Source: a bacterium (GTDB taxonomy: Bacteria; Margulisbacteria; WOR-1; O2-12-FULL-45-9). From it: a stretch of DNA of 48,886 nt. The notes beneath the pieces are model-generated. The model ran no database searches. It was not told the origin of the DNA and saw only the letters and a program-made list of their open reading frames with translations. The stretch covers positions 1 to 48,886 of the forward strand of contig JBDRIF010000045.1 in NCBI GenBank assembly GCA_043816125.1. Direction: 5' to 3'. Positions 438 through 10,668 of this stretch are shown piece by piece. Every line of letters begins with the position of its first letter. Within the stretch, counting starts at the first letter, position 1. The translations under genes and the position numbers were made by a program.

Positions 438-1456
438 TTAGCCAAATCCTCGTCTGTTATTACTACTTTCCCCTGTCCGATGACAGATATCTTTTTATCT
501 TTTAACGAGAGTCTAACTTTTTTTCCGGCCAAAGTATTTTCCCCTTGAGTCGCCCGGGCTTTGCCCGATAATATGATGGTCTGCTCTTCGGTAAAATATT
601 GAGCCGAATCCCCCCAGGCCTCAATATCCATATAGTTTACCTTAACGCGGTCAGAGAGCTCAAGGATGTTTTCGGCCTGCAGATATTTCATCTTACCGGC
701 CAGAATATTTGCCTCTTCCCATCTTATTTCCGGGGCTCCAGAGGCAATAATTTCGTCTTTGGGACTGATCACTTGAAAAGAGACAGCTTCCAGCGTTATT
801 GGCGACGAGTTTGTCGGCTCAATTGTTAAGACCGGCCGCCCATCAAGGATAATATTTTGTAATCCGACATCACTTGTCAGTCTGTCGGCCCGCCCGGTGA
901 TCTCCCCTTTGTTCAAAATGATATTGCCGCTGCAGATCAACTGCTGAGTGGCCAGTTTCCAGCTTAAATTCTTGGCTTGAAACCAGTAACCTGGGTTTTT
1001 GGCATAAAGTTTAGGCAGGTTAAAAATAGAGGCGGCTCCGGCTTTTTGTTGGGCCAATAACCCCTCGATTTTATCTTTTAAGCTGACGTCGTAACCCAAT
1101 GGCTGATCAAGAAAGATCTCCTTCTTTTTCATGTCCCAGAGAGCGATGGGGGAGTTGAAGCTTAAAACCGGTTTCCCATTCTGATAAAAATTCCCTTTGG
1201 ATATCTTCAAGGTGGAGAGTTGAGTCGATTTGTTGACCATTGCGGTTTCGGCGATTAATTGCCAGTATTTAATCCCGGCTACCACTTCTTCAAAGGAGAC
1301 CTGCTTAAAAGCCATATCGGCCTGGTTTTCCTGTTCTTTTAACGTCCGGTAGATCCGTTCAGAAATATCTTCTTTGGGGCTAAAAGCGACCCAAGCAAAG
1401 ATCCCGATAAAAAAAATAGTGATAGCGCCTAAGATGATTTTTGTGCTAAGTTTCAT
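434..1456 (-). CDS. membrane-anchored periplasmic LPS-transport protein, LptC/OstA(LptA)-like
   Basis: ORF 434..1513. Preferred start is ATG 1456 (MKLSTKIILGAITIFFIGIFAWV), giving one N-terminal TM anchor followed by a long beta-rich region. Sits next to heptose/LPS genes. Family call from pattern and context only. Confidence 0.5.
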   Translation of the reverse strand: MKLSTKIILGAITIFFIGIFAWVAFSPKEDISERIYRTLKEQENQADMAFKQVSFEEVVAGIKYWQLIAETAMVNKSTQLSTLKISKGNFYQNGKPVLSFNSPIALWDMKKKEIFLDQPLGYDVSLKDKIEGLLAQQKAGAASIFNLPKLYAKNPGYWFQAKNLSWKLATQQLICSGNIILNKGEITGRADRLTSDVGLQNIILDGRPVLTIEPTNSSPITLEAVSFQVISPKDEIIASGAPEIRWEEANILAGKMKYLQAENILELSDRVKVNYMDIEAWGDSAQYFTEEQTIILSGKARATQGENTLAGKKVRLSLKDKKISVIGQGKVVITDEDLAK

Positions 1457-2055
1457 TAAAACCCGAGAGCCTTTAGTCGAACAGCTTCCATCCGTTCTAA
1501 AAATCCGCGCCAACTATCCCCTTTTTTATAATAACCTTCGGCCAACAGTAGATGCAAAGCGGCGACATTGTTATCTATTGCCAGTCCTTTTTTTGTAAAT
1601 GCCATGGCCAGGTCAACGTTATCAAGCTCCCCATAGATTAAAGCTAGATAGCCATGGGCCCAGACATTATTTGGATCAATAATTAAGACGTTTTTTAGCT
1701 CTCTGACGGCATCTGTCCTCTGCTCGTTAAAATAGTAGGCAAAGGCGAGGCGAAAACGAAGTTTCCAATCGTTCGGCTCTGTGTTTACTTTTTCAATATA
1801 CAAGGGGAGGGCCCGATCTTTAAATGTCGGGTCAAGTTGGACGACTTTCTTCAAGAGAGACATCCCTTCGATGATGTTATTGGTATAGGCGTAGGTGATG
1901 GCCAGCTCAAAATTGGCTTGTGGATCGGTCGGATTTTGGGCCACAATCGCTTTCTTATCGGCAACCTCTTCTTTGAGCTCATTGGATATTCGCCAAGCCC
2001 GTGCGGGCAAGATACAAGATACAAGTAACAAGATACAAATGATTATTCTTTTCAT
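1456..2055 (-). CDS. secreted tetratricopeptide (TPR) repeat protein
   Basis: ORF 199 aa. Signal peptide MKRIIICILLLVSCILPARA, then repeated A..Y...G....A...F.KAL..DP-type TPR motifs (ANFELAITYAYTNN, WAHGYLALIYGELDNVDLAMAFTKKGLAID). TAATG one-base overlap with the downstream gene. Confidence 0.7.
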   Translation of the reverse strand: MKRIIICILLLVSCILPARAWRISNELKEEVADKKAIVAQNPTDPQANFELAITYAYTNNIIEGMSLLKKVVQLDPTFKDRALPLYIEKVNTEPNDWKLRFRLAFAYYFNEQRTDAVRELKNVLIIDPNNVWAHGYLALIYGELDNVDLAMAFTKKGLAIDNNVAALHLLLAEGYYKKGDSWRGFLERMEAVRLKALGF

Positions 2056-2057
2056 AT

Positions 2058-3509
2058 TTATTGTTTTGCCAGGATCTTCTCAACAATGTTTGTGGTGGAG
2101 CGGCCTTTGATCGGAGGGATAACGATCACTTTGCCGCCCAGAGATTCGACTAATTTGCGTTCGGGGAGCTGGCTGATCTTATAATCTCCCCCCTTAACAT
2201 GAATCTCTGGTTTAACTGCTTTAATTAGATTGTCAGGTCTCAATTCATCAAAAAGACAGACGTAGTCTACACATTCCAGAGAGGCCAGGACTTCGGCCCG
2301 TTCCATCTCCGAAACATACGGACGGTCTTTCCCTTTTAATTTTTTGACCGAACTATCGCTGTTGACGCCAACGATTAGCAGGTCACCAAGTTTTTTTGCC
2401 TCACTCAAATATCGCACATGGCCAAGATGGAGGATATCAAAACAACCGTTGGTAAAAACGATCTTTGCTCCCTGGAGTCTTAATTTGTCGGTAATCTTGC
2501 TGATCTCCTGTCGCTTCTTAATTTTTTTAGTGATCGGTTCGTGTCCCTCGATAGCTTCGGATAACTCGTCTCTAAAGCAGGGGGCGGTGCCGATTTTGCC
2601 AATGACGACCGAGGCGGCATAGTTGCCAAGAATACAGGCGGTCTTGATGTCGACTCCGGCCGCCAGGGAGAGGGAAATCGTCGCAATAACAGTGTCTCCG
2701 GCGCCGGTGATATCAAAGACCTCTCGAGGGACAGCCGGAATGTAGATTGCTTCATCTTCGGCAAACAACGACATTCCATCACGACCGCGGGTGATCAAGG
2801 CATATTTTGTGCCTGCCACATTGCGCAGGACAGCCCCCATCTTCATAATATTCTTTTCGCCGACAACGAGGAGGCGGGTGGCAATTGAAGCCTCTCTTAG
2901 GTTCGGAGTAATAATCGTCGCCCCTTGATATTTCTTGTAATCGACCCCTTTAGGGTCAACGGCGACCGGTTTTTTGTTCTTTTTGGCCAGGCTGATCAAC
3001 GCTTGGGCTGTTAGCTGATTGACCGCCCCTTTGCCGTAGTCGGAAATAATTACTCCATCAACCGCTTTGATCAATGATTGTAATTTTTTGGTGATGTTGG
3101 CAATTAGTTTGTCGGATAAAATTGTTCTGTCTTCCCGGTCGACTCGGACCAGATGTTGTGAAGAGGCGATGATCCTCGATTTCAAGATTGTCGGCCTGGT
3201 TCTGTCTATAATTAGGTTGCCGGCCGAGATATTTGACTCGCGTAATGCTTTGCGAAGTTTTTCACCCGAACTGTCGTGGCCGATAACGCCGACTAGAAGC
3301 GGAGTCCCACCCAGAGCTGTGATATTTGCCGCGACGTTGCCGCAGCCGCCGGGGACATGGTTAATCTGGATAACATCGGCGATCGGGACGGGGGCTTCGG
3401 GGGAGATGCGGGAGACTTTGGTCCAAATATGTTCATCAAGCATCAGATCGCCAAAGACCAAGATCTTCTTTCCTTTGAATTTGGGCAAGATGTTCTTGAG
3501 GCTTTCCAT
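2058..3509 (-). CDS. hldE: bifunctional D-beta-D-heptose 7-phosphate kinase / D-beta-D-heptose 1-phosphate adenylyltransferase
   Basis: 483 aa. N-terminal PfkB-type sugar kinase (GGCGNVAANITALGG ... DITGAGDTV). C-terminal cytidylyltransferase (FTNGCFDILHLGHVRYLSEAKKLGDLLIVGVNSD). Confidence 0.9.
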   Translation of the reverse strand: MESLKNILPKFKGKKILVFGDLMLDEHIWTKVSRISPEAPVPIADVIQINHVPGGCGNVAANITALGGTPLLVGVIGHDSSGEKLRKALRESNISAGNLIIDRTRPTILKSRIIASSQHLVRVDREDRTILSDKLIANITKKLQSLIKAVDGVIISDYGKGAVNQLTAQALISLAKKNKKPVAVDPKGVDYKKYQGATIITPNLREASIATRLLVVGEKNIMKMGAVLRNVAGTKYALITRGRDGMSLFAEDEAIYIPAVPREVFDITGAGDTVIATISLSLAAGVDIKTACILGNYAASVVIGKIGTAPCFRDELSEAIEGHEPITKKIKKRQEISKITDKLRLQGAKIVFTNGCFDILHLGHVRYLSEAKKLGDLLIVGVNSDSSVKKLKGKDRPYVSEMERAEVLASLECVDYVCLFDELRPDNLIKAVKPEIHVKGGDYKISQLPERKLVESLGGKVIVIPPIKGRSTTNIVEKILAKQ

Positions 3510-3512
3510 TCT

Positions 3513-4064
3513 TTATTCTCCCAAAATAGTTTTGACTGCCGCCATTAAATCTTCTGCAATTATATCAGGTTTGTTAGCTAAACGGTCAACCGTATGCAGT
3601 CCAGTTTTTACAAAAGCAGTCTTAGTTCCGGCATTTTTACCCGCGCCAATATCGCCATCCTTATCCCCAATCATCCAGGAATGAGCGAGATCAATATTAT
3701 GGTCTTTGGCCGCTTTTAGGAGCATCCCCGGATTCGGTTTTCGCAATTGGCTATCTTGTTTGTACGGGTAAATGCCGTGTTCGGCATGAAAAGGACAATA
3801 GTAAATACCTTCAATATAGGCGCCGTTGTTTAAGATAAGTCGCTGGATTGTTTTGTCGATTGTTTGTAACATATCTTCGCGAATTAAACCTCGGGCAATA
3901 CCAGCCTGATTTGTCACTATGATGATTTTGTAGCCGGCTTTATTTAGTAGTTTTATCGCTTCGAGTGAGCCGGGGATAAATTTGATATCAGCCGGATTGT
4001 TTAAATAGCCGACATCTTCGATTATCGTCCCATCGCGGTCGAGAAATACGGCCTTATCAGGCAT
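3513..4064 (-). CDS. gmhB: D,D-heptose 1,7-bisphosphate phosphatase (HAD-IIIA)
   Basis: ORF 3513..4196. Homology begins at MPDKAVFLDRDGTIIED (ATG 4064). Also IIIVTNQAGIARG and GDKDGDIGAG HAD motifs. 8-nt overlap with the gmhA stop. Confidence 0.85.
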   Translation of the reverse strand: MPDKAVFLDRDGTIIEDVGYLNNPADIKFIPGSLEAIKLLNKAGYKIIIVTNQAGIARGLIREDMLQTIDKTIQRLILNNGAYIEGIYYCPFHAEHGIYPYKQDSQLRKPNPGMLLKAAKDHNIDLAHSWMIGDKDGDIGAGKNAGTKTAFVKTGLHTVDRLANKPDIIAEDLMAAVKTILGE

Positions 4065-4781: not shown

Positions 4782-5789
4782 ATGAGTAAAAAATATAACG
4801 TATGTGTCTTGGGTGCGACCGGAATGGTTGGTAAAGAGATGATGAAAGTCCTCGAAGAAAGAGATTTTCCTGTAGGTCGTTTTCTTCCGTTAGCCTCTGA
4901 AAGAACTGCCGGTCAAAAGGTTACTTTCAAAGGGAAAGAATACGTTGTTGAAGAAGCAAAGCCTGAATCTTTTGACGGGATGGATATCGGCCTTTTTTCG
5001 GCCGGAGCCAAAGTTTCGGCCAAGTTTGCCCCCGAAGCGGCCAAACGAGATTGTATAGTAGTTGATAATACCAGCCATTTTCGGATGGACCCTGAAGTCC
5101 CTCTCGTCGTTCCCGAAGTCAATCCCCAGGCGATCAAACGCCATAAAGGGATCATTGCCAACCCCAATTGTTCAACTGCCCAGCTGGTTTTGCCTCTAAA
5201 ACCGATCTATGATGCTGTCGGGATCGAACGGATTGTTATTTCAACTTACCAATCGACTTCAGGGTGGGGGAAAGAGGCGATCGCCGAGATGTATGAGCAG
5301 ACCAAAACTTTGCTGGCCGATCCGCAGGCAGTTATTACTCCCAAATATATTTTTAAGCAGATTGCTTTTAATCTGGTTCCGCAGATCGATCAATTTGCCG
5401 ATAATGGATATACCAAAGAAGAGATCAAAATGGTGAATGAAACCAAAAAGATCTTTGAAGATGATACGATTAAAGTTACCGCTACCTGTGTTCGTGTTCC
5501 TGTCGCAATCGGTCACTCCGAATCGGTTAACATAAAGACCAGAAGAAAAATTTCCGTCGAAGAAGTGAGGAAGTTAATCGCCGGATTCCCGACTTGTGTG
5601 GTGATGGACGATCCGTCAAATGGCGTTTATCCGACGCCGATCGACTGTGCCGGCAAAAATGAAACCTTTGTCGGCCGAATCCGTGAAGATATTTCGCAGG
5701 AAAACGGGATCGAAATGTGGATCGTCTCCGATAACCTCCGCCGCGGCGCCGCGCTTAATGCTGTTTTGATTGCGGAAAGACTGCTTTAG
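4782..5789 (+). CDS. asd: aspartate-semialdehyde dehydrogenase
   Basis: 335 aa; VCVLGATGMVG NAD fold, IANPNCSTAQLV active-site Cys motif, C-terminal DNLRRGAALNAV. Confidence 0.92.
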   Translation: MSKKYNVCVLGATGMVGKEMMKVLEERDFPVGRFLPLASERTAGQKVTFKGKEYVVEEAKPESFDGMDIGLFSAGAKVSAKFAPEAAKRDCIVVDNTSHFRMDPEVPLVVPEVNPQAIKRHKGIIANPNCSTAQLVLPLKPIYDAVGIERIVISTYQSTSGWGKEAIAEMYEQTKTLLADPQAVITPKYIFKQIAFNLVPQIDQFADNGYTKEEIKMVNETKKIFEDDTIKVTATCVRVPVAIGHSESVNIKTRRKISVEEVRKLIAGFPTCVVMDDPSNGVYPTPIDCAGKNETFVGRIREDISQENGIEMWIVSDNLRRGAALNAVLIAERLL

Positions 5790-7423
5790 GTCGTTTCTTC
5801 TGGATAATTTAGACTGATCATGCCGTCTCTTCCAATGAGCCAAGCATTGTTGTAGTGTCCCGGGTTAAACAAGACAAGATCTATGCCGCTACTTGACCAT
5901 TCAAAACCGAGTTGGCGCATCTTCTTGATCAGTTCTCCTCTTGTTGTCTGATTTGTTTCTAGAGAAGATAGTGTTATTACAACAGCTTCGGGAATACCGG
6001 CTTTTTTGCGAGTTGTCGACCAGACAATTCCCTCTGGTGGAGTGGGGTATCTGTTACGCAAATCATAAACACTTTGTCCTATGACGATAAACTCTCCATG
6101 GAAGTTTAAGTAATACCGTGCATTTTCTCTCGATAAACCTGTTCCTGCGGAAATTTGATCTAGGGTCTGTTTGCCGTTGGTTGTCAGGAATTGCCAAATC
6201 CGGTTAAAACTTCCCTTAGATAATTTTGTCAGACAAAAACGATCCTCCTCAATAGTAACTCTTGGGTGATGGGCGAAGATCTCTCTCAGTTCGGTTTCCA
6301 GGACTGCTATTCCCAACTGAGTTCTTAACTGCGTTCGATAATCATTGAATGACCAGGAGCTTCTGCCGCTGGGGGAAGGTTGTGATGGATTCAAATCGAC
6401 TAATTGCTGATAATCAACCTCGGTTCGACAAAAAGCTGGATTAGCAATTTTTGCATTGCTGACATTAATGCCAGTCTCCAAGTTAATGACGGTTGCCTGA
6501 TCGGCATCAATCAAGATATGGTCTACAGCTCGTGGTGTGACTGTCATAATATCAATTTCTGTCGAGGCGATTCGGAGCGGGCCGAGAGTATCCCAGCAAA
6601 TTGCGATGAGAGGCCCTAAAAGAGGGGCTTCGTTTTCTGCCAACACCTGCAGACCGAGTAAGCTTTCTCTTAGTCCTCTGAGGGTGACTATCGGCGAGCT
6701 GGCTAGAGACCAGGAGAGAATGATTGATAATGTGCGCCACATCGGTAAGAGGTGTTCGTGGAGGAGAGAGCCCTTCAAAAACTGCATTTTTGAACTGTCA
6801 ATATTGGCGTGTAGTGACTGTCTGTTTTGTATGCCAAATTCAGTCATGATCTCTCTAGGTGTAAAGTAATGTCCGGGTTGCTGAAAACCATAGTACATTC
6901 CAATTATGGCTTTATCTCTTTCCGAGATATTTGGTGCTGTTTTCAATAAGCGAGTTACCCTCTCCAGAGTAACAAGTGAGATTTCTGCTGCTCTGTTAAT
7001 AGTAAATTCGCGTGCTCCGGGCAGCCCGAGTAACCCGGGGTCTCTTGTCAGGATTGCTTCGCCAACCACCAAACATCTCTCTTCGCCGCTTCTAAATCTA
7101 TTGGAGGCACGCGTGGCTAAACCAAAGGTGTTTAGGGTAGGGGAAATGTAAACTGTTTCGACAAGGGTCCCTCTTCTCCTGAGCTCTTTTATTACCGCTT
7201 CAGCAAAGGTTTTGGTCGGAAGCAATGAGGTAACCTGAGACGAACTTCTAACACTTGCATGCCTTTTCCTAGCTACTTTTATTGGTGTGACCGGAGGGAG
7301 GTCTACTACAGAGGAATGGTGTTGGACTACCCTTTTAACTTGTCGTGCTCGGGCTCTGGTTTGAGCGTTATCGTTGTCTCTTTTTGCCTGCCAGCAGCGG
7401 GCCATTCTTAATAATTCTGTCAT
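5786..7423 (-). CDS. hypothetical multi-HTH protein, paralog 1 (sigma-70 region-4-like HTH + HARE-HTH-like + C-terminal winged-helix-like)
   Basis: 545 aa. Aa ~165-212 ISERDKAIIGMYYGF..TPREIMTEFGI resembles sigma region 4. Aa ~404-460 end in HGEFIVIGQSVYDLRNRYP, close to the HARE-HTH terminal motif of RNAP delta (GRFLAL..TWGLRSWYP). Collinear paralog of 7439..8977. Its stop overlaps the asd stop (convergent). Confidence 0.6.
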   Translation of the reverse strand: MTELLRMARCWQAKRDNDNAQTRARARQVKRVVQHHSSVVDLPPVTPIKVARKRHASVRSSSQVTSLLPTKTFAEAVIKELRRRGTLVETVYISPTLNTFGLATRASNRFRSGEERCLVVGEAILTRDPGLLGLPGAREFTINRAAEISLVTLERVTRLLKTAPNISERDKAIIGMYYGFQQPGHYFTPREIMTEFGIQNRQSLHANIDSSKMQFLKGSLLHEHLLPMWRTLSIILSWSLASSPIVTLRGLRESLLGLQVLAENEAPLLGPLIAICWDTLGPLRIASTEIDIMTVTPRAVDHILIDADQATVINLETGINVSNAKIANPAFCRTEVDYQQLVDLNPSQPSPSGRSSWSFNDYRTQLRTQLGIAVLETELREIFAHHPRVTIEEDRFCLTKLSKGSFNRIWQFLTTNGKQTLDQISAGTGLSRENARYYLNFHGEFIVIGQSVYDLRNRYPTPPEGIVWSTTRKKAGIPEAVVITLSSLETNQTTRGELIKKMRQLGFEWSSSGIDLVLFNPGHYNNAWLIGRDGMISLNYPEETT

Positions 7424-7438
7424 ATTCTTTTCCTGTTA

Positions 7439-8977
7439 TTAAACATAATATTTCCCTCTGCCTGTCTCCATAATGTGTGCTTTAATATCGTCGTATCTAT
7501 GAAGGACATTTTGCACTGCTTTAAGCGACCATCGGAAACCGAGTGATAAAGTTGACTGATGTATCTCTCTGGCAGTTAATGGTCCGCTAGCTCTGACCAG
7601 TGCCACATAAACTGCCGGAAATGCAAAAGCGGCACTTTGAATTTCAGGAACTGTTACGTATCTAAAAACGGAGGCGAACTTACTGCGGAGGTTATACCAG
7701 CCGTTTCCGACCAGGATGAATTCTTCTTTCTCGGCTTTTAGCAAGTTGGCTGTGGTCCCTTCTGTTAAGCCGACTGAGCGGGCTATAACTTCGTAATGTA
7801 ATGGACCTTCAAAATCAAGTAACTGTCTGACCCGGTCGAAATTGACCCAAATCATTTTAACAGTCCAAAAAGTATCTCCTTCGACTACAAAAGAGGGATG
7901 ATAATTAAAAAGCGAGCGGAGCGCTTCGATGGAAATGTTTAATTCGAGCCTCTCTGAGACGACTTTTTGGAAAGGTTTCAATTGCCAGTAGGCCCGTCGT
8001 TCCGGTTTCTCTCTGACTTCAAAATAGAGATCAATAATTCTTTGGTAGTCAGATGATTCGCGGCAAAAGGCGACAGCTTCTGCTCTGACATTCTCCTCCG
8101 CCTCCCCATCGAAAAGGCTAAGCAGTTTTACATCTCCCCCTCTAAGGAGCTCAAAATTAACGGCTTCGCCGGGTAAGGTTGGCAGGTCAATGTGACTCAT
8201 TGAGGCCCGAAATGGTCTGAGCCAATCCCAGATTAGGCCGAGCAGAGGAATAATCTGATTTTCGTTCTCCTCTGTAATAAGAGAAAAACTTTTTAAGTCT
8301 CTAATTAAATAATCTAAGGGATAAAGAATCTCTGTGGCCAAATGCCAACTAATGATGGTAGAAATAATTTCCCAGGTTGGGAGTAGGTAGTCGAACTTTA
8401 GCGGACTTCTGGATATTTCTGACTTGGTTCTGGCATCGACTCGTGCGGCTTTTGATGTCCCTATTTCCTGGCCAATAGCTGTAAAGGAGAGGGCTTTTCC
8501 GGAGTCATGAAAGCCGGTTCGTTTTTTGGCAACCTCAATACGTAGTTCTGTTTCACGTAGGCCCAATCGCTCAATAAGTTCGGTTATTCTGGACCAGTTC
8601 GAGATAGGAGATCGGCCGACATTGTTCGAATTATATCTGGCTGGCCAGAAAAGGGCTCTTTCGGTGCTTTGAGTTTGAATTATCCTTGGGCGAGTCCTCT
8701 CCATTATTCCCGGGGTTGGGATCAGTTCGTTAACATATATTGTGTCAACCTCTCTTCCTGTTTCAGTTAGGTAAGCTTCCATTTTTTCGATGAAAGCTTC
8801 TAACGTTATTGGTAAACGATAATTTAGCGAGGTCTTTAGTAACACATCTCTGCCATGAATATTAATTCGCCTTGGCAGCTTAGTTGGAGCGGATGCCGCG
8901 GATTGAGGATTAGCAACCCTTCTCGCCGCCCAGCATTGAGCCATGTTTCTAAGTGAGCTAACTTCTGTGGGTCTCAT
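7439..8977 (-). CDS. hypothetical multi-HTH protein, paralog 2
   Basis: 512 aa. Shares with 5786..7423 the motifs A(R/Q)CW.A.R at the N-terminus, LLP.W..(L/I)S.I(L/I)SW.LA, PLLG.....WD.L.P.R, FCR...DYQ..(V/I)DL, (F)..HP......(D)(R/T)F and EF(I)(V/L)(I/V)G..(V/W)Y.LR. Region-4-like LSFTAIGQEIGTSKAARVDARTKSEI. Confidence 0.6.
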   Translation of the reverse strand: MRPTEVSSLRNMAQCWAARRVANPQSAASAPTKLPRRINIHGRDVLLKTSLNYRLPITLEAFIEKMEAYLTETGREVDTIYVNELIPTPGIMERTRPRIIQTQSTERALFWPARYNSNNVGRSPISNWSRITELIERLGLRETELRIEVAKKRTGFHDSGKALSFTAIGQEIGTSKAARVDARTKSEISRSPLKFDYLLPTWEIISTIISWHLATEILYPLDYLIRDLKSFSLITEENENQIIPLLGLIWDWLRPFRASMSHIDLPTLPGEAVNFELLRGGDVKLLSLFDGEAEENVRAEAVAFCRESSDYQRIIDLYFEVREKPERRAYWQLKPFQKVVSERLELNISIEALRSLFNYHPSFVVEGDTFWTVKMIWVNFDRVRQLLDFEGPLHYEVIARSVGLTEGTTANLLKAEKEEFILVGNGWYNLRSKFASVFRYVTVPEIQSAAFAFPAVYVALVRASGPLTAREIHQSTLSLGFRWSLKAVQNVLHRYDDIKAHIMETGRGKYYV

Positions 8978-9019
8978 GGTTCTGTATCGTCTCTACTCGT
9001 GGAAAATTTCAAGCAATAC

Positions 9020-9028
9020 TGATATAAT
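9020..9028 (+). promoter_or_regulatory. extended -10 box TGATATAAT, 6 nt upstream of the GTG start of the methyltransferase operon
   Basis: tgatataat at 9020..9028, spacer tcaaaa, GTG at 9035. No SD. Confidence 0.5.
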
Positions 9029-9034
9029 TCAAAA

Positions 9035-9679
9035 GTGCACAACCAAGGACAAAGAGATTATTTTGAAGGGTTATTGGCCAAGCACGGAAATTCATATCTG
9101 GCTCTCGATTGGAACAGTCCCGAGAGTCAAAAACTCCGCTACATAATTTTGAGTCAGATCTTGCAGTTTTCCGCCAAATCAGTCGATCTTTCTTTGCTTG
9201 ATGTCGGTTGCGGCTTTGGGGACTTGTTCGATTTCTTACGTAGTCAAAAATTGTTAGCCAGTCATAATATTAGTTATCTTGGTTACGATATTTCCGACAA
9301 AATATTGGCCGTGGCCAAAAAGAACTATCCTGATGCCAAATTTGAACATAAAGATCTTCTGTTGGAAACGGATGTTCCCCATGTTGATTTTATCTTTGCT
9401 TCTGGAATATTTAACATTAGGGTCTTACCCAAAGATGAACATCATAATTTTGTTAAGGAAATGTTGCAGCGGATGTACGAGTTGGCAAATTATGGGGTGG
9501 CTGTTAATTTTTTAAGCGAAAACGGTGTTTCTATCTCAGATATCGATGATTTGAACAGCGGCCGTTATTTTTGTTTTAAGGTTGAGGACTTGGCCGAATT
9601 CAGCCGGGCTTTGACCAATCGTTTTATCATAAGACATGATTATCATCAGGGCGATTTTACGCTATACTTATTAAAATGA
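9035..9679 (+). CDS. class I SAM-dependent methyltransferase
   Basis: 214 aa; motif I LLDVGCGFGDLFDFL, post-I YLGYDIS, motif II/III FIFASGIF. GTG start. ATGA overlap with the next gene. Confidence 0.8.
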   Translation: MHNQGQRDYFEGLLAKHGNSYLALDWNSPESQKLRYIILSQILQFSAKSVDLSLLDVGCGFGDLFDFLRSQKLLASHNISYLGYDISDKILAVAKKNYPDAKFEHKDLLLETDVPHVDFIFASGIFNIRVLPKDEHHNFVKEMLQRMYELANYGVAVNFLSENGVSISDIDDLNSGRYFCFKVEDLAEFSRALTNRFIIRHDYHQGDFTLYLLK

Positions 9680-10668
9680 ATCCCGCAAGAAGATTAATAT
9701 TACCGGCTCTGATCCTAGTCTCCATTATCACTTTTGGGATAGTCGGTTTTATGCTTATTGAAGGGTGGGGCTTTTTCGACTCCGCCTATATGATGGTTAT
9801 CACTCTGTTTACTGTCGGCTTTCGTGAAGTTCATCCGTTGTCCAATGCCGGTAGATTGTTGACCATGTTTATTATTGTATCCGGTGTCGGTACGGCTATC
9901 TATTCTGTCGGGCAGATCGGAGAAATAATTGTTGAAGGCCAAATATTTGGTTACAGGAGGAAACAAAGAATGAAAGGAAAATTAAAAGAGTTGAAAGAGC
10001 ATTACATAATCTGTGGTTATGGGCGGGTGGGACATCAGGTGGCCGAAGAATTGCTTTTGGAAAATATGCCGATCGTGGTGGTTGATATTAAGCCGGAAAC
10101 TTCTGAAGAGTTAGAACCAAAAGGGATCCCTTATGTGGTTGCCGACTCGACTTCTAATGGCGTATTGAAGGAAGCAGGGGTTGAGCGGGCCAAAGGGTTG
10201 ATCGCCTGTGCCGATTCTGACATGGAGAATGTATTTGTCACTTTGTCTGCCAGAGCAGCCAATCCGGATATGCATATTGTCGCTAGGGCGAGCGGCAAAG
10301 ATGCGGAAGAAAAATTAAAATTGGCCGGGGCCAACAGAGTGATCTCTCCCTACTTTATTTCTGCCCGACGTATGGCCGGCTTGGCCACAAAACCGGTTGC
10401 CAGCGATTTTCTTGATACTGTTATGCATGGTGAACATTTAGCCTTCAGCTTAAGGGAAGTTCGCATACCGGATAATAGCAAAATTGTTGATAAATCTTTA
10501 GCTGATGCGGAGATCAAACATAAATCAGGGGCGTCTGTCCTGGCGATCCGTAAAATTGATGGTGGTTTCAACCTTCAACCTCTGGCCGCTTCCAAGATTG
10601 ATAAAGGGGACGTTTTAATCGTGATCGGGACGAGTGAACAACTGGATTTATTGGAGAAGATGCTTTAA
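9676..10668 (+). CDS. 2-TM ion channel with RCK (TrkA-N/TrkA-C) domains; non-canonical filter TVGFREV
   Basis: 330 aa. M1-pore helix-M2 layout, then IICGYGRVGHQVAEEL Rossmann (TrkA-N) and a TrkA-C-like C-terminus (KSLADAEIKHKSGASVLAIRK). Filter position reads TVGFREV (nt 9811..9831) instead of TVGYGD. Confidence 0.75.
   Translation: MNPARRLILPALILVSIITFGIVGFMLIEGWGFFDSAYMMVITLFTVGFREVHPLSNAGRLLTMFIIVSGVGTAIYSVGQIGEIIVEGQIFGYRRKQRMKGKLKELKEHYIICGYGRVGHQVAEELLLENMPIVVVDIKPETSEELEPKGIPYVVADSTSNGVLKEAGVERAKGLIACADSDMENVFVTLSARAANPDMHIVARASGKDAEEKLKLAGANRVISPYFISARRMAGLATKPVASDFLDTVMHGEHLAFSLREVRIPDNSKIVDKSLADAEIKHKSGASVLAIRKIDGGFNLQPLAASKIDKGDVLIVIGTSEQLDLLEKML

Follow-up and report, generated by a model that had tools for sequence, protein, structure and literature searches.

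A tandem pair of putative multi-helix-turn-helix regulators in a Margulisbacteria genome

What could be the role of two large, adjacent and mutually related genes, neither of them encoding a recognizable enzyme, that separate asd from a divergent methyltransferase operon? The question is raised by contig JBDRIF010000045.1 of the assembly GCA_043816125.1 (Margulisbacteria, WOR-1; hereinafter genome G000), of which a stretch of 48,886 nt, from position 1 to 48,886, was analysed (the window). Genes A (545 amino acids [aa], positions 5786..7423) and B (512 aa, 7439..8977) are both open reading frames (ORFs) on the minus strand, spaced by 15 nt. The original prediction for this locus viewed their products as large paralogous proteins without a catalytic motif that combine a sigma region 4-like helix-turn-helix (HTH) with HARE-HTH-like and additional winged-helix (WH) modules. 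We consider it an even bet (probability of about 0.5) that A and B are basic, nucleic acid-binding regulators with multiple HTH modules. They would represent a diverged branch of the class of proteins in which repeats of the C-terminal domain of the RNA polymerase (RNAP) alpha subunit (alpha-CTD) are followed by a sigma region 4 (sigma-4) HTH and winged helices, denoted (alpha-CTD)n-sigma4-WH. Each of the two proteins is composed of a basic N-terminal helix, an N-domain, an HTH derived from sigma region 4, a helical or WH-like middle domain and three winged helices.

Paralogy and domain architecture of A and B

Comparison of A with B using BLASTP produced a single collinear alignment of 529 columns (25% identity, E=1e-38), with ~130 positions identical in both copies, confirming that the two genes are collinear paralogs. 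Both ORFs have exactly the coordinates given above. The motifs singled out in the original prediction all correspond to invariant columns of this pairwise alignment, namely, MA.CW.A.R, LLP.W...S.I.SW.LA, PL...WD.L.P.R, FCR...DYQ..DL, EFI..G...Y.LR and LGF.WS. Both copies are intact, given that all six region profiles, built exclusively from other family members with A and B left out, find their match in each copy and in the right order. Relative to the other copy, the best-scoring regions are the N-domain (22 bits) and the first winged helix, wH1 (38 bits), in A, and wH2 (44 bits) and wH3 (37 bits) in B. Poor scores were obtained for wH3 of A (15 bits) and for the N-domain of B (13 bits), the latter with a deletion.

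Taken alone, neither A nor B has a significant match in Pfam, NCBIfam, PADLOC or PHROGs, and no catalytic, enzymatic or defence family was found in either protein across these domain libraries, which supports the prediction of large proteins devoid of catalytic motifs. Their domains could be assigned because their relatives, identified with a profile built from A and B, do match the libraries. The AlphaFold2 model of A, built from the family alignment, has a predicted local distance difference test score (pLDDT) of 73.6 and a predicted template modelling score of 0.62.

The module derived from the transcription machinery is a degenerate sigma-70 region 4-like HTH, assigned by the family profile and by a structural match to residues 151–218 of A (6770..6973, minus strand), with the counterpart in B located at about 8408–8602 (minus strand). 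At the level of the family, this part of the original prediction was right. The Pfam family Sigma70_r4 matches 9 of the 18 members scanned singly (best E=2.4e-10), and the family profile retrieves region 4 of SigA/RpoD from among the PDB sequences (E=4.8e-17), in an alignment that spans regions 4.1 and 4.2 and the 'KLRHPSRS' tail. Relatives of A and B carry the 'ALKKLRHPSR' tail of group-1 sigma factors. Furthermore, Foldseek superposes the model of A onto region 4 of sigma-A with a probability of 0.99–1.0 and a root-mean-square deviation of 1.7–3.0 Å over 65–73 columns, the TM(target) of this local match being 0.59–0.73. Thus, both the profile match and the fold in the model of A are shared with region 4 of group-1 sigma-70 factors (PDB 7ckq_F, 1tty, 6ono and 7kuf).

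In Escherichia coli sigma-70, the residues R584, E585, R588 and Q589 contact the −35 hexamer. The corresponding positions are kept in the family members P0006, P0013, P0014 and P0008 (e.g., 'TKERVRQ' and 'TNERIRQ'), but not in the pair, where they are replaced by 'QNRQSLH' in A and 'SKAARVD' in B, so that any specificity would have to come from the winged helices or from residues elsewhere. Neither Sigma70_r2 nor Sigma70_r3 matches A or B at E≤10, and neither is found among the family-wide matches, whereas the NCBIfam RpoD models align to the family through their C-terminal 60–80 positions only. Unlike group-1 sigma-70, A and B have no regions 1, 2 and 3 and, therefore, no predicted capacity for core binding or −10 melting. 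Judging from their domain content, A, B and the other family members are not sigma factors.

The N-terminal part of the proteins comprises two further modules. The basic N-terminal helix (residues 1–35 of A, 7319..7423, minus strand; about 8888–8977, minus strand, in B) contains the MA(R/Q)CW.A.R motif, has a net charge of +6 and is modelled as a helix over residues 2–35; its motif is present also in P0005, a relative bearing alpha-CTD ('LLRIAQCRAAQ'). It is followed by a subgroup-specific alpha/beta N-domain (residues 68–150 of A, 6974..7222, minus strand) which, besides the pair, is present only in P0010, P0011, P0012 and P0015. In the B counterpart (about 8603–8815, minus strand), the segment 'IPEELLARDPGL' is deleted. 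No relative of the N-domain was found among PDB sequences. The position of the N-domain is taken in some relatives by one to five alpha-CTD repeats. The possibility that the N-domain is a degenerate alpha-CTD, hinted at by the placement of columns in the MAFFT alignment, was rejected given the hhalign probability of 0.2%. When the members were scanned separately, alpha-CTD was identified by Pfam in 4 of the 18 (P0005, P0008, P0014 and P0017; best E=1.1e-11) and was not found in A or B.

Sigma-4 and the winged helices are connected by a family-wide middle domain, helical and WH-like (residues 219–350 of A, 6374..6769, minus strand; about 8009–8407, minus strand, in B), which carries the LLP.W...SW.LA, PLLG..WD and FCR...DYQ..DL signatures. 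In the model of A, this domain consists of helices at residues 219–280 and a small sheet at 311–332, with residues 284–305 modelled at low confidence. The middle domain is acidic, with net charges of −7 (A) and −11 (B). Both proteins are basic overall (pI of 9.4 and 8.8, respectively), with the positive charge concentrated in the N-terminal helix and sigma-4; throughout the family, sigma-4 and wH3 carry a positive charge. This predicted charge pattern fits nucleic acid binding, unlike that of the acidic delta subunit of RNAP.

Winged helices and likeness to known systems

The C-terminal modules of A and B certainly are winged helices, as the original prediction had it. In A, residues 351–545 (5789..6373, minus strand) encompass wH1 (6227–6373), wH2 (6038–6226) and wH3 (5789–6037), which match the region profiles with 38, 30 and 15 bits, respectively. 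In B, residues 324–512 (7442..8008, minus strand) encompass wH1 (7853–8008), wH2 (7667–7852) and wH3 (7442–7666), and the AlphaFold2 model of this part (pLDDT 82.9) consists of three tandem H-H-H-beta-beta units. The last two modules, wH2 and wH3, constitute an internal repeat (hhalign probability 95.8%, E=7.5e-9). Foldseek searches with the C-terminal model of B retrieved WH2–WH4 of SelB (2uwm and 1lva; E=3.9e-4), RPC62 (2xub; E=4.7e-4) and UFL1/DDRGK1 (8b9x; E=1.7e-3), all of which contain three consecutive winged helices and matched with probabilities of 0.99–1.0. With sequence identities of 12–15% and TM-scores of 0.27–0.38, the latter being low because the inter-domain geometry differs, these matches reflect a shared fold class rather than demonstrated homology.

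The more specific assignment of one of these modules to the HARE-HTH fold received weak support. In Pfam scans of isolated modules, HARE-HTH was recovered in 0 of the 16 copies of wH2, the module ending in EFIVIGQSVYDLRNRYP on which the assignment was based, and in 3 of the 17 copies of wH3 (E≥0.01), with HTH_12 and Penicillinase_R matching equally weakly. When the complete proteins were scanned, HARE-HTH matched 1 of the 18 members (E=1.2e-4). Neither A nor B has a match above the gathering score of the HARE-HTH family (PF05066; 25.9 bits), and a scan of the 146 genomes of the phylum with PF05066 found no member of the A/B family. Compared by hhalign with a two-sequence reference of genuine HARE-HTH domains, wH3 aligns in register over 61 columns with a probability of 53% (E=1.3e-4), wH2 reaches 15%, and the other regions, used as controls, 0.1–2.4%; generic HTH likeness inside a protein, however, reaches a probability of 60% over 25 columns. 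Among the PDB sequences, profiles of the WH modules matched Fur (E=5e-4) and HTH proteins of a generic kind, with no RNAP delta among them, and no RNAP delta or HARE structure is present among the top 50 Foldseek matches of the B C-terminus. A HARE-HTH affinity of wH3 or wH2 is therefore possible but unproven. The RNAP delta subunit is strongly acidic. A and B resemble RpoE in the wing motif, which is similar to the end of HARE-HTH, and in the alignment of wH3, but differ from it in being large and basic and in lacking an acidic C-terminal tail.

The two genuine HARE-HTH proteins used as the reference were detected in the phylum scan in genomes G011 (L057, 958–1716; 77 bits) and G042 (L058, 1489–2241; 67 bits). 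In both, HARE-HTH is an N-terminal fusion to a restriction endonuclease-like domain of ~170 aa. The G042 gene is located directly 3′ of a 256-aa ORF with DNA methyltransferase-like motifs and, hence, probably belongs to a restriction-modification system.

A different likeness connects the family to defence proteins. Models of MzaA, a sigma-70-family protein from the MZA anti-phage system, match 5 of the 18 members in PADLOC (PDLC02203) and 7 of the 18 in NCBIfam (NF041931), but these matches, of 26–48 bits against a cut-off of 800, are confined to positions 618–716 of the 726-position profile, that is, to the C-terminal sigma-4 segment that MzaA shares with some relatives of the pair. Neither A nor B matches MzaA, and no Mza partner genes were found in the context of any family member. 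In a further observation, residues 369–542 of P0014 (L015, 8001–10433) weakly match positions 810–991 of the 1391-position NCBIfam PglW profile (27.5 bits, E=6e-7). The matched residues run from the last alpha-CTD through sigma-4 into the beginning of the middle domain, a hint that the BREX kinase PglW contains a related alpha-CTD/sigma-4-like stretch. Membership of the family in either MzaA or PglW was rejected, as nothing beyond the sigma-4 segment is matched.

The closest parallel to the predicted architecture is the (alpha-CTD)n-sigma4-WH/HARE class. Aravind and Iyer (Cell Cycle, 2012) reportedly noted, by computational analysis, bacterial proteins that unite traits of sigma factors with those of the RNAP alpha subunit, through alpha-CTD, a sigma-type HTH and HARE-HTH. 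A and B share with this class the sigma-4 HTH followed by a WH array, in proteins without an enzymatic domain, and in four of their relatives sigma-4 is preceded by alpha-CTD repeats. By contrast, the pair itself has no alpha-CTD, carries the subgroup-specific alpha/beta N-domain and a degenerate sigma-4, and is arranged in tandem in a non-defence context. The search with the A+B profile, which found 17 clusters only, did not reach the wider class. To our knowledge, this recurrent class, in which promoter-reading modules of RNAP are reused outside the polymerase, has not been studied, and none of its members is known to have a function established by experiment.

Distribution, evolution and genomic context of the family

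The family appears to be very rare and, among the sequences searched, is restricted to Margulisiibacteriota. An exhaustive HMMER search of 1.84 billion cluster representatives with the A+B profile yielded 17 clusters, including A and B themselves, and the named carrier genomes are those of Candidatus Saganbacteria and Candidatus Margulisiibacteriota. Members are encoded in 6 of the 146 phylum genomes (6 of 112 genera). Word-indexed homology searches with A alone, the family alignment or the C-terminal region of P0008 returned nothing beyond the query, and none of the 600 pattern matches obtained by scanning metagenome contigs with the A+B alignment proved to be a relative. Nor were relatives found among the viral structures of BFVD or, using P0014 as the tblastn query, in plasmids, so that there is no link to mobile elements. 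In the branch that has diverged furthest from the other members (L007, 763–2820, genome G059), the protein is 389 aa long and has no recognizable sigma-4; a co-oriented ORF of 294 aa, without a Pfam match, begins 4 nt downstream.

Two copies are present only in G000, with a single copy in every other carrier genome. In the family tree, A and B are sisters (ultrafast bootstrap 81, SH-aLRT 91), on branches of 1.64 and 1.22 substitutions per site. These observations point to a lineage-specific tandem duplication rather than a two-component system, and an obligate pairing, which the original prediction had suggested examining through the neighbourhoods of homologues, is not observed: the homologues are single-copy genes in varied contexts. 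Scores for the individual regions are higher in A for the N-domain and wH1 and higher in B for wH2 and wH3. Thus, the copies show a mild complementary divergence, as far as the profiles can tell, rather than decay.

Six members, spread over the family tree, occupy one and the same site, between the gene for the substrate-binding protein (SBP_bac_5) and the permease genes of an opp/dpp operon, where they lie on the other strand and are transcribed away from the permease genes (L004, L006, L011, L012, L013 and L060). Genes for T2SS-F and a pseudopilin are located upstream of the SBP gene in these loci. Given this spread over the tree, the opp/dpp operon is most simply regarded as the ancestral position. 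The remaining sites are between tlyA and nadK (two members), next to rmuC (two members) and beside an rpoD-like gene. In none of the contexts did we find a gene for a nuclease, DNA methylase, ATPase, transposase or integrase, and no enzymatic partner gene is conserved across the family contexts. In L011, a 440-aa ORF without a Pfam match (635–1957, minus strand), beside the truncated member P0010, stands where other opp loci have permease genes; its motif ..KFTGDGK.AE.(E/A)M(N/D)R.. is repeated at least twice.

Orthologs in the opp slot are 23–39% identical, as compared with 61–83% for the flanking SBP and 69–89% for the permease. For P0013 and P0014, the closest pair for which DNA was available, the ratio of nonsynonymous to synonymous substitution rates (dN/dS) is 0.30 (dS 0.90), compared with 0.026 (dS 0.94) for the adjacent rmuC. 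On these sequence comparisons, the family is under purifying selection and changes at about ten times the rate of its neighbours. The numbers of alpha-CTD and WH repeats vary among the members, having been gained and lost.

In G000, the opp slot is closed: on contig C83 (L019), the SBP gene (1240..2829) overlaps the following ORF (2826..3794) by 4 nt, with nothing inserted. The pair lies instead where the original prediction placed it, between asd and a divergent methyltransferase operon. The stop codon of asd (4782..5789, plus strand) overlaps that of A, and the gene divergent from B (9035..9679) encodes a class-I S-adenosylmethionine-dependent methyltransferase of the small-molecule type (Methyltransf_25, E=5e-8). 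The next gene (9676–10668) encodes a homologue of RCK-gated channels (Ion_trans_2, TrkA_N and TrkA_C).

The flanks of this interval (5789–9035 in the window), hldE-gmhB-gmhA followed by asd on one side and the genes for the methyltransferase, RCK channel, DUF2148 protein and hexapeptide transferase on the other, are syntenic in nine relatives of G000 from the same taxonomic family (loci compared, L047–L056). The interval itself measures 37 bp in G010, where it is empty, and 0.8–4.3 kb elsewhere, with unrelated cargo. The latter includes, in G004 and G006, DUF4046-containing proteins of 541–559 aa; in G008, an unknown protein of 554 aa; in G001, a DUF294/NTP_transf_2 nucleotidyltransferase; and, in G013, a 160-aa MraZ/AbrB-like ORF. 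A metallophosphatase and, next to asd, a membrane protein of ~220 aa also occur there. The 541–559-aa ORFs of G004, G006 and G008 were considered as distant homologues of A and B and rejected, since no BLASTP match is better than E=0.2 and the Pfam content differs. With the length and cargo of the interval varying while the flanks stay syntenic, A and B occupy a variable accessory slot. The GC content of the region (0.44–0.46) equals the average of the window. No flanking direct or inverted repeats that would mark a recent insertion of the pair were found, just short imperfect chance matches; one repeat match (5895/7527) is leftover paralogy of A and B in the LGF(E/R)WS codons.

The 15-nt spacer between the two genes (7424..7438, minus strand), read directly from the sequence, is TAA-taacAGGAAAagaat-ATG and contains a plausible ribosome-binding site, AGGAAA, 8 nt ahead of the ATG of A. 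No terminator-like site was found between B and A on the minus strand. These two features suggest that B and A are probably co-transcribed, most likely as a single transcript with B first. B and the methyltransferase operon are separated by a divergent intergenic region of 57 bp (8978..9034), which contains a promoter-like TGGAAA-17-TATAAT sequence with an extended −10 element on the plus strand (9000–9028); a consensus promoter for B was not found on the minus strand of this region.

Possible functions and implications

If A and B indeed are diverged members of the (alpha-CTD)n-sigma4-WH class, they would bind nucleic acids through sigma-4 and the WH array, most likely as DNA-binding transcription regulators or chromosome-associated regulators, and may cooperate as a hetero-oligomer. 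As for its history, the family gene is most simply traced to the opp/dpp site; in G000, that site is empty, and the gene has been duplicated in tandem and is found in the slot between asd and the methyltransferase gene. Several observations weigh against the interpretation as nucleic acid-binding regulators. Sigma70_r4 matches to A or B alone are below the threshold, and the sigma-4 call for the pair rests on family profiles and on a model derived from the family alignment. The sister grouping of A and B joins two long branches and may reflect long-branch attraction. Furthermore, a conventional transcription factor would not usually evolve at this rate, reshuffle its domains or be distributed so patchily (6 of 112 genera). 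The ligand of the pair need not be DNA, given that tandem WH arrays may bind RNA, as in SelB, or proteins, as in UFL1 and RPC62. SelB binds RNA, whereas RPC62, a subunit of Pol III, and UFL1 bind proteins and DNA.

Some of the same observations would be accommodated if the proteins were directed at RNAP or imitated it in a conflict between host and virus. In that case, the sigma-4 copy, like the alpha-CTD copies of relatives, would not read DNA but would dock onto the beta-flap or, by presenting RNAP-like surfaces, lure phage takeover proteins directed at sigma-4 or alpha-CTD, with the WH array transmitting or anchoring the signal. The modules copy the promoter-recognition parts of RNAP itself, down to the C-terminal tail of group-1 sigma factors; in A and B, sigma-4 keeps the fold but not the residues that read the −35 element; and fast evolution, domain shuffling, alpha-CTD and WH repeats that differ in number between members, patchy distribution and residence of the pair in a variable accessory slot would all fit this scenario. 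However, no effector, toxin or defence gene adjoins any member, PADLOC is negative for A and B, and the opp position has remained stable despite the large sequence divergence, unlike defence islands. The dN/dS of 0.30 is clearly purifying, viral homologues were not found, and the proteins are basic like DNA binders. We therefore regard an RNAP-directed role of the pair as a doubtful alternative, and the broader proposal, that the entire family is a fast-evolving, free-standing mimic of the promoter-recognition surfaces of RNAP acting via RNAP or against phage factors directed at it, as somewhat more doubtful still. Regulation of whatever operon lies next door, that is, the opp/dpp permeases ancestrally and the operon for the methyltransferase, RCK channel, DUF2148 protein and acetyltransferase in G000, has the topology in its favour. 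Six members scattered over the tree are located between SBP and permeases in the divergent arrangement classic for regulators and their targets, and the pair, convergent with asd, diverges from the methyltransferase operon over a short promoter region. Nevertheless, this operon does not need A and B, being conserved in the nine relatives that lack them, in one with merely 37 bp between asd and the methyltransferase gene, and the family is absent from 140 of the 146 phylum genomes, and the opp operon of G000 persists without the insert. With other members at tlyA-nadK, rmuC and rpoD, and with fast-evolving multi-domain proteins of 500–800 aa being atypical of operon-specific repressors, a dedicated local regulator appears improbable.

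The original prediction also raised the possibility that the pair is the sensing part of a nucleic acid-targeting system. A DNA-reading subunit of a defence or DNA modification system, either stranded or working with the neighbouring methyltransferase, could be invoked to explain the matches of relatives to MzaA, the weak PglW match of P0014 and the methyltransferase gene adjoining B. This explanation is already largely refuted by the contexts and seems to us very unlikely. The MzaA matches cover the sigma-4 segment only and PADLOC returned no match for A or B, the methyltransferase is of the small-molecule type and belongs to an operon conserved without the pair, and the family, with its housekeeping contexts, has no nuclease, ATPase or DNA methylase partner and no plasmid or viral relatives. 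We infer that A and B are neither homologues of RNAP delta nor part of a defence operon. Equally far-fetched is the idea that one or both copies are decaying, functionless remnants of a duplicated gene. Although the long branches and the poor scores of wH3 in A and of the N-domain in B are compatible with decay, the ORFs of 545 and 512 codons are uninterrupted and retain the six regions in order along with the invariant positions, both structural models are confident, and the family is under purifying selection where this could be measured; neither copy thus has the appearance of a pseudogene.

If the mimicry scenario were nevertheless true, the family might dock on the beta-flap or act as a decoy or sensor, and A and B would have sub-functionalized into a heteromer. 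RNAP-directed proteins with an accessory or immunity role, in no need of an enzymatic partner, would then constitute a new class. Under the reading that we favour, of nucleic acid-binding regulators derived from the (alpha-CTD)n-sigma4-WH class, what has been found is a well-described orphan family, not a new mechanism. The family indicates that this architecture is compatible with the absence of alpha-CTD and with degeneration of sigma-4, that it can hold a stable non-defence site in the chromosome, within the opp operon, even though it outpaces its neighbours in evolution about ten-fold, and that it can duplicate into a putatively co-transcribed pair in which the best-kept modules differ between the copies. 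Identification of the ligand, be it promoter DNA, the RNAP flap or a phage protein, would show the general role of such 'spare promoter readers'.

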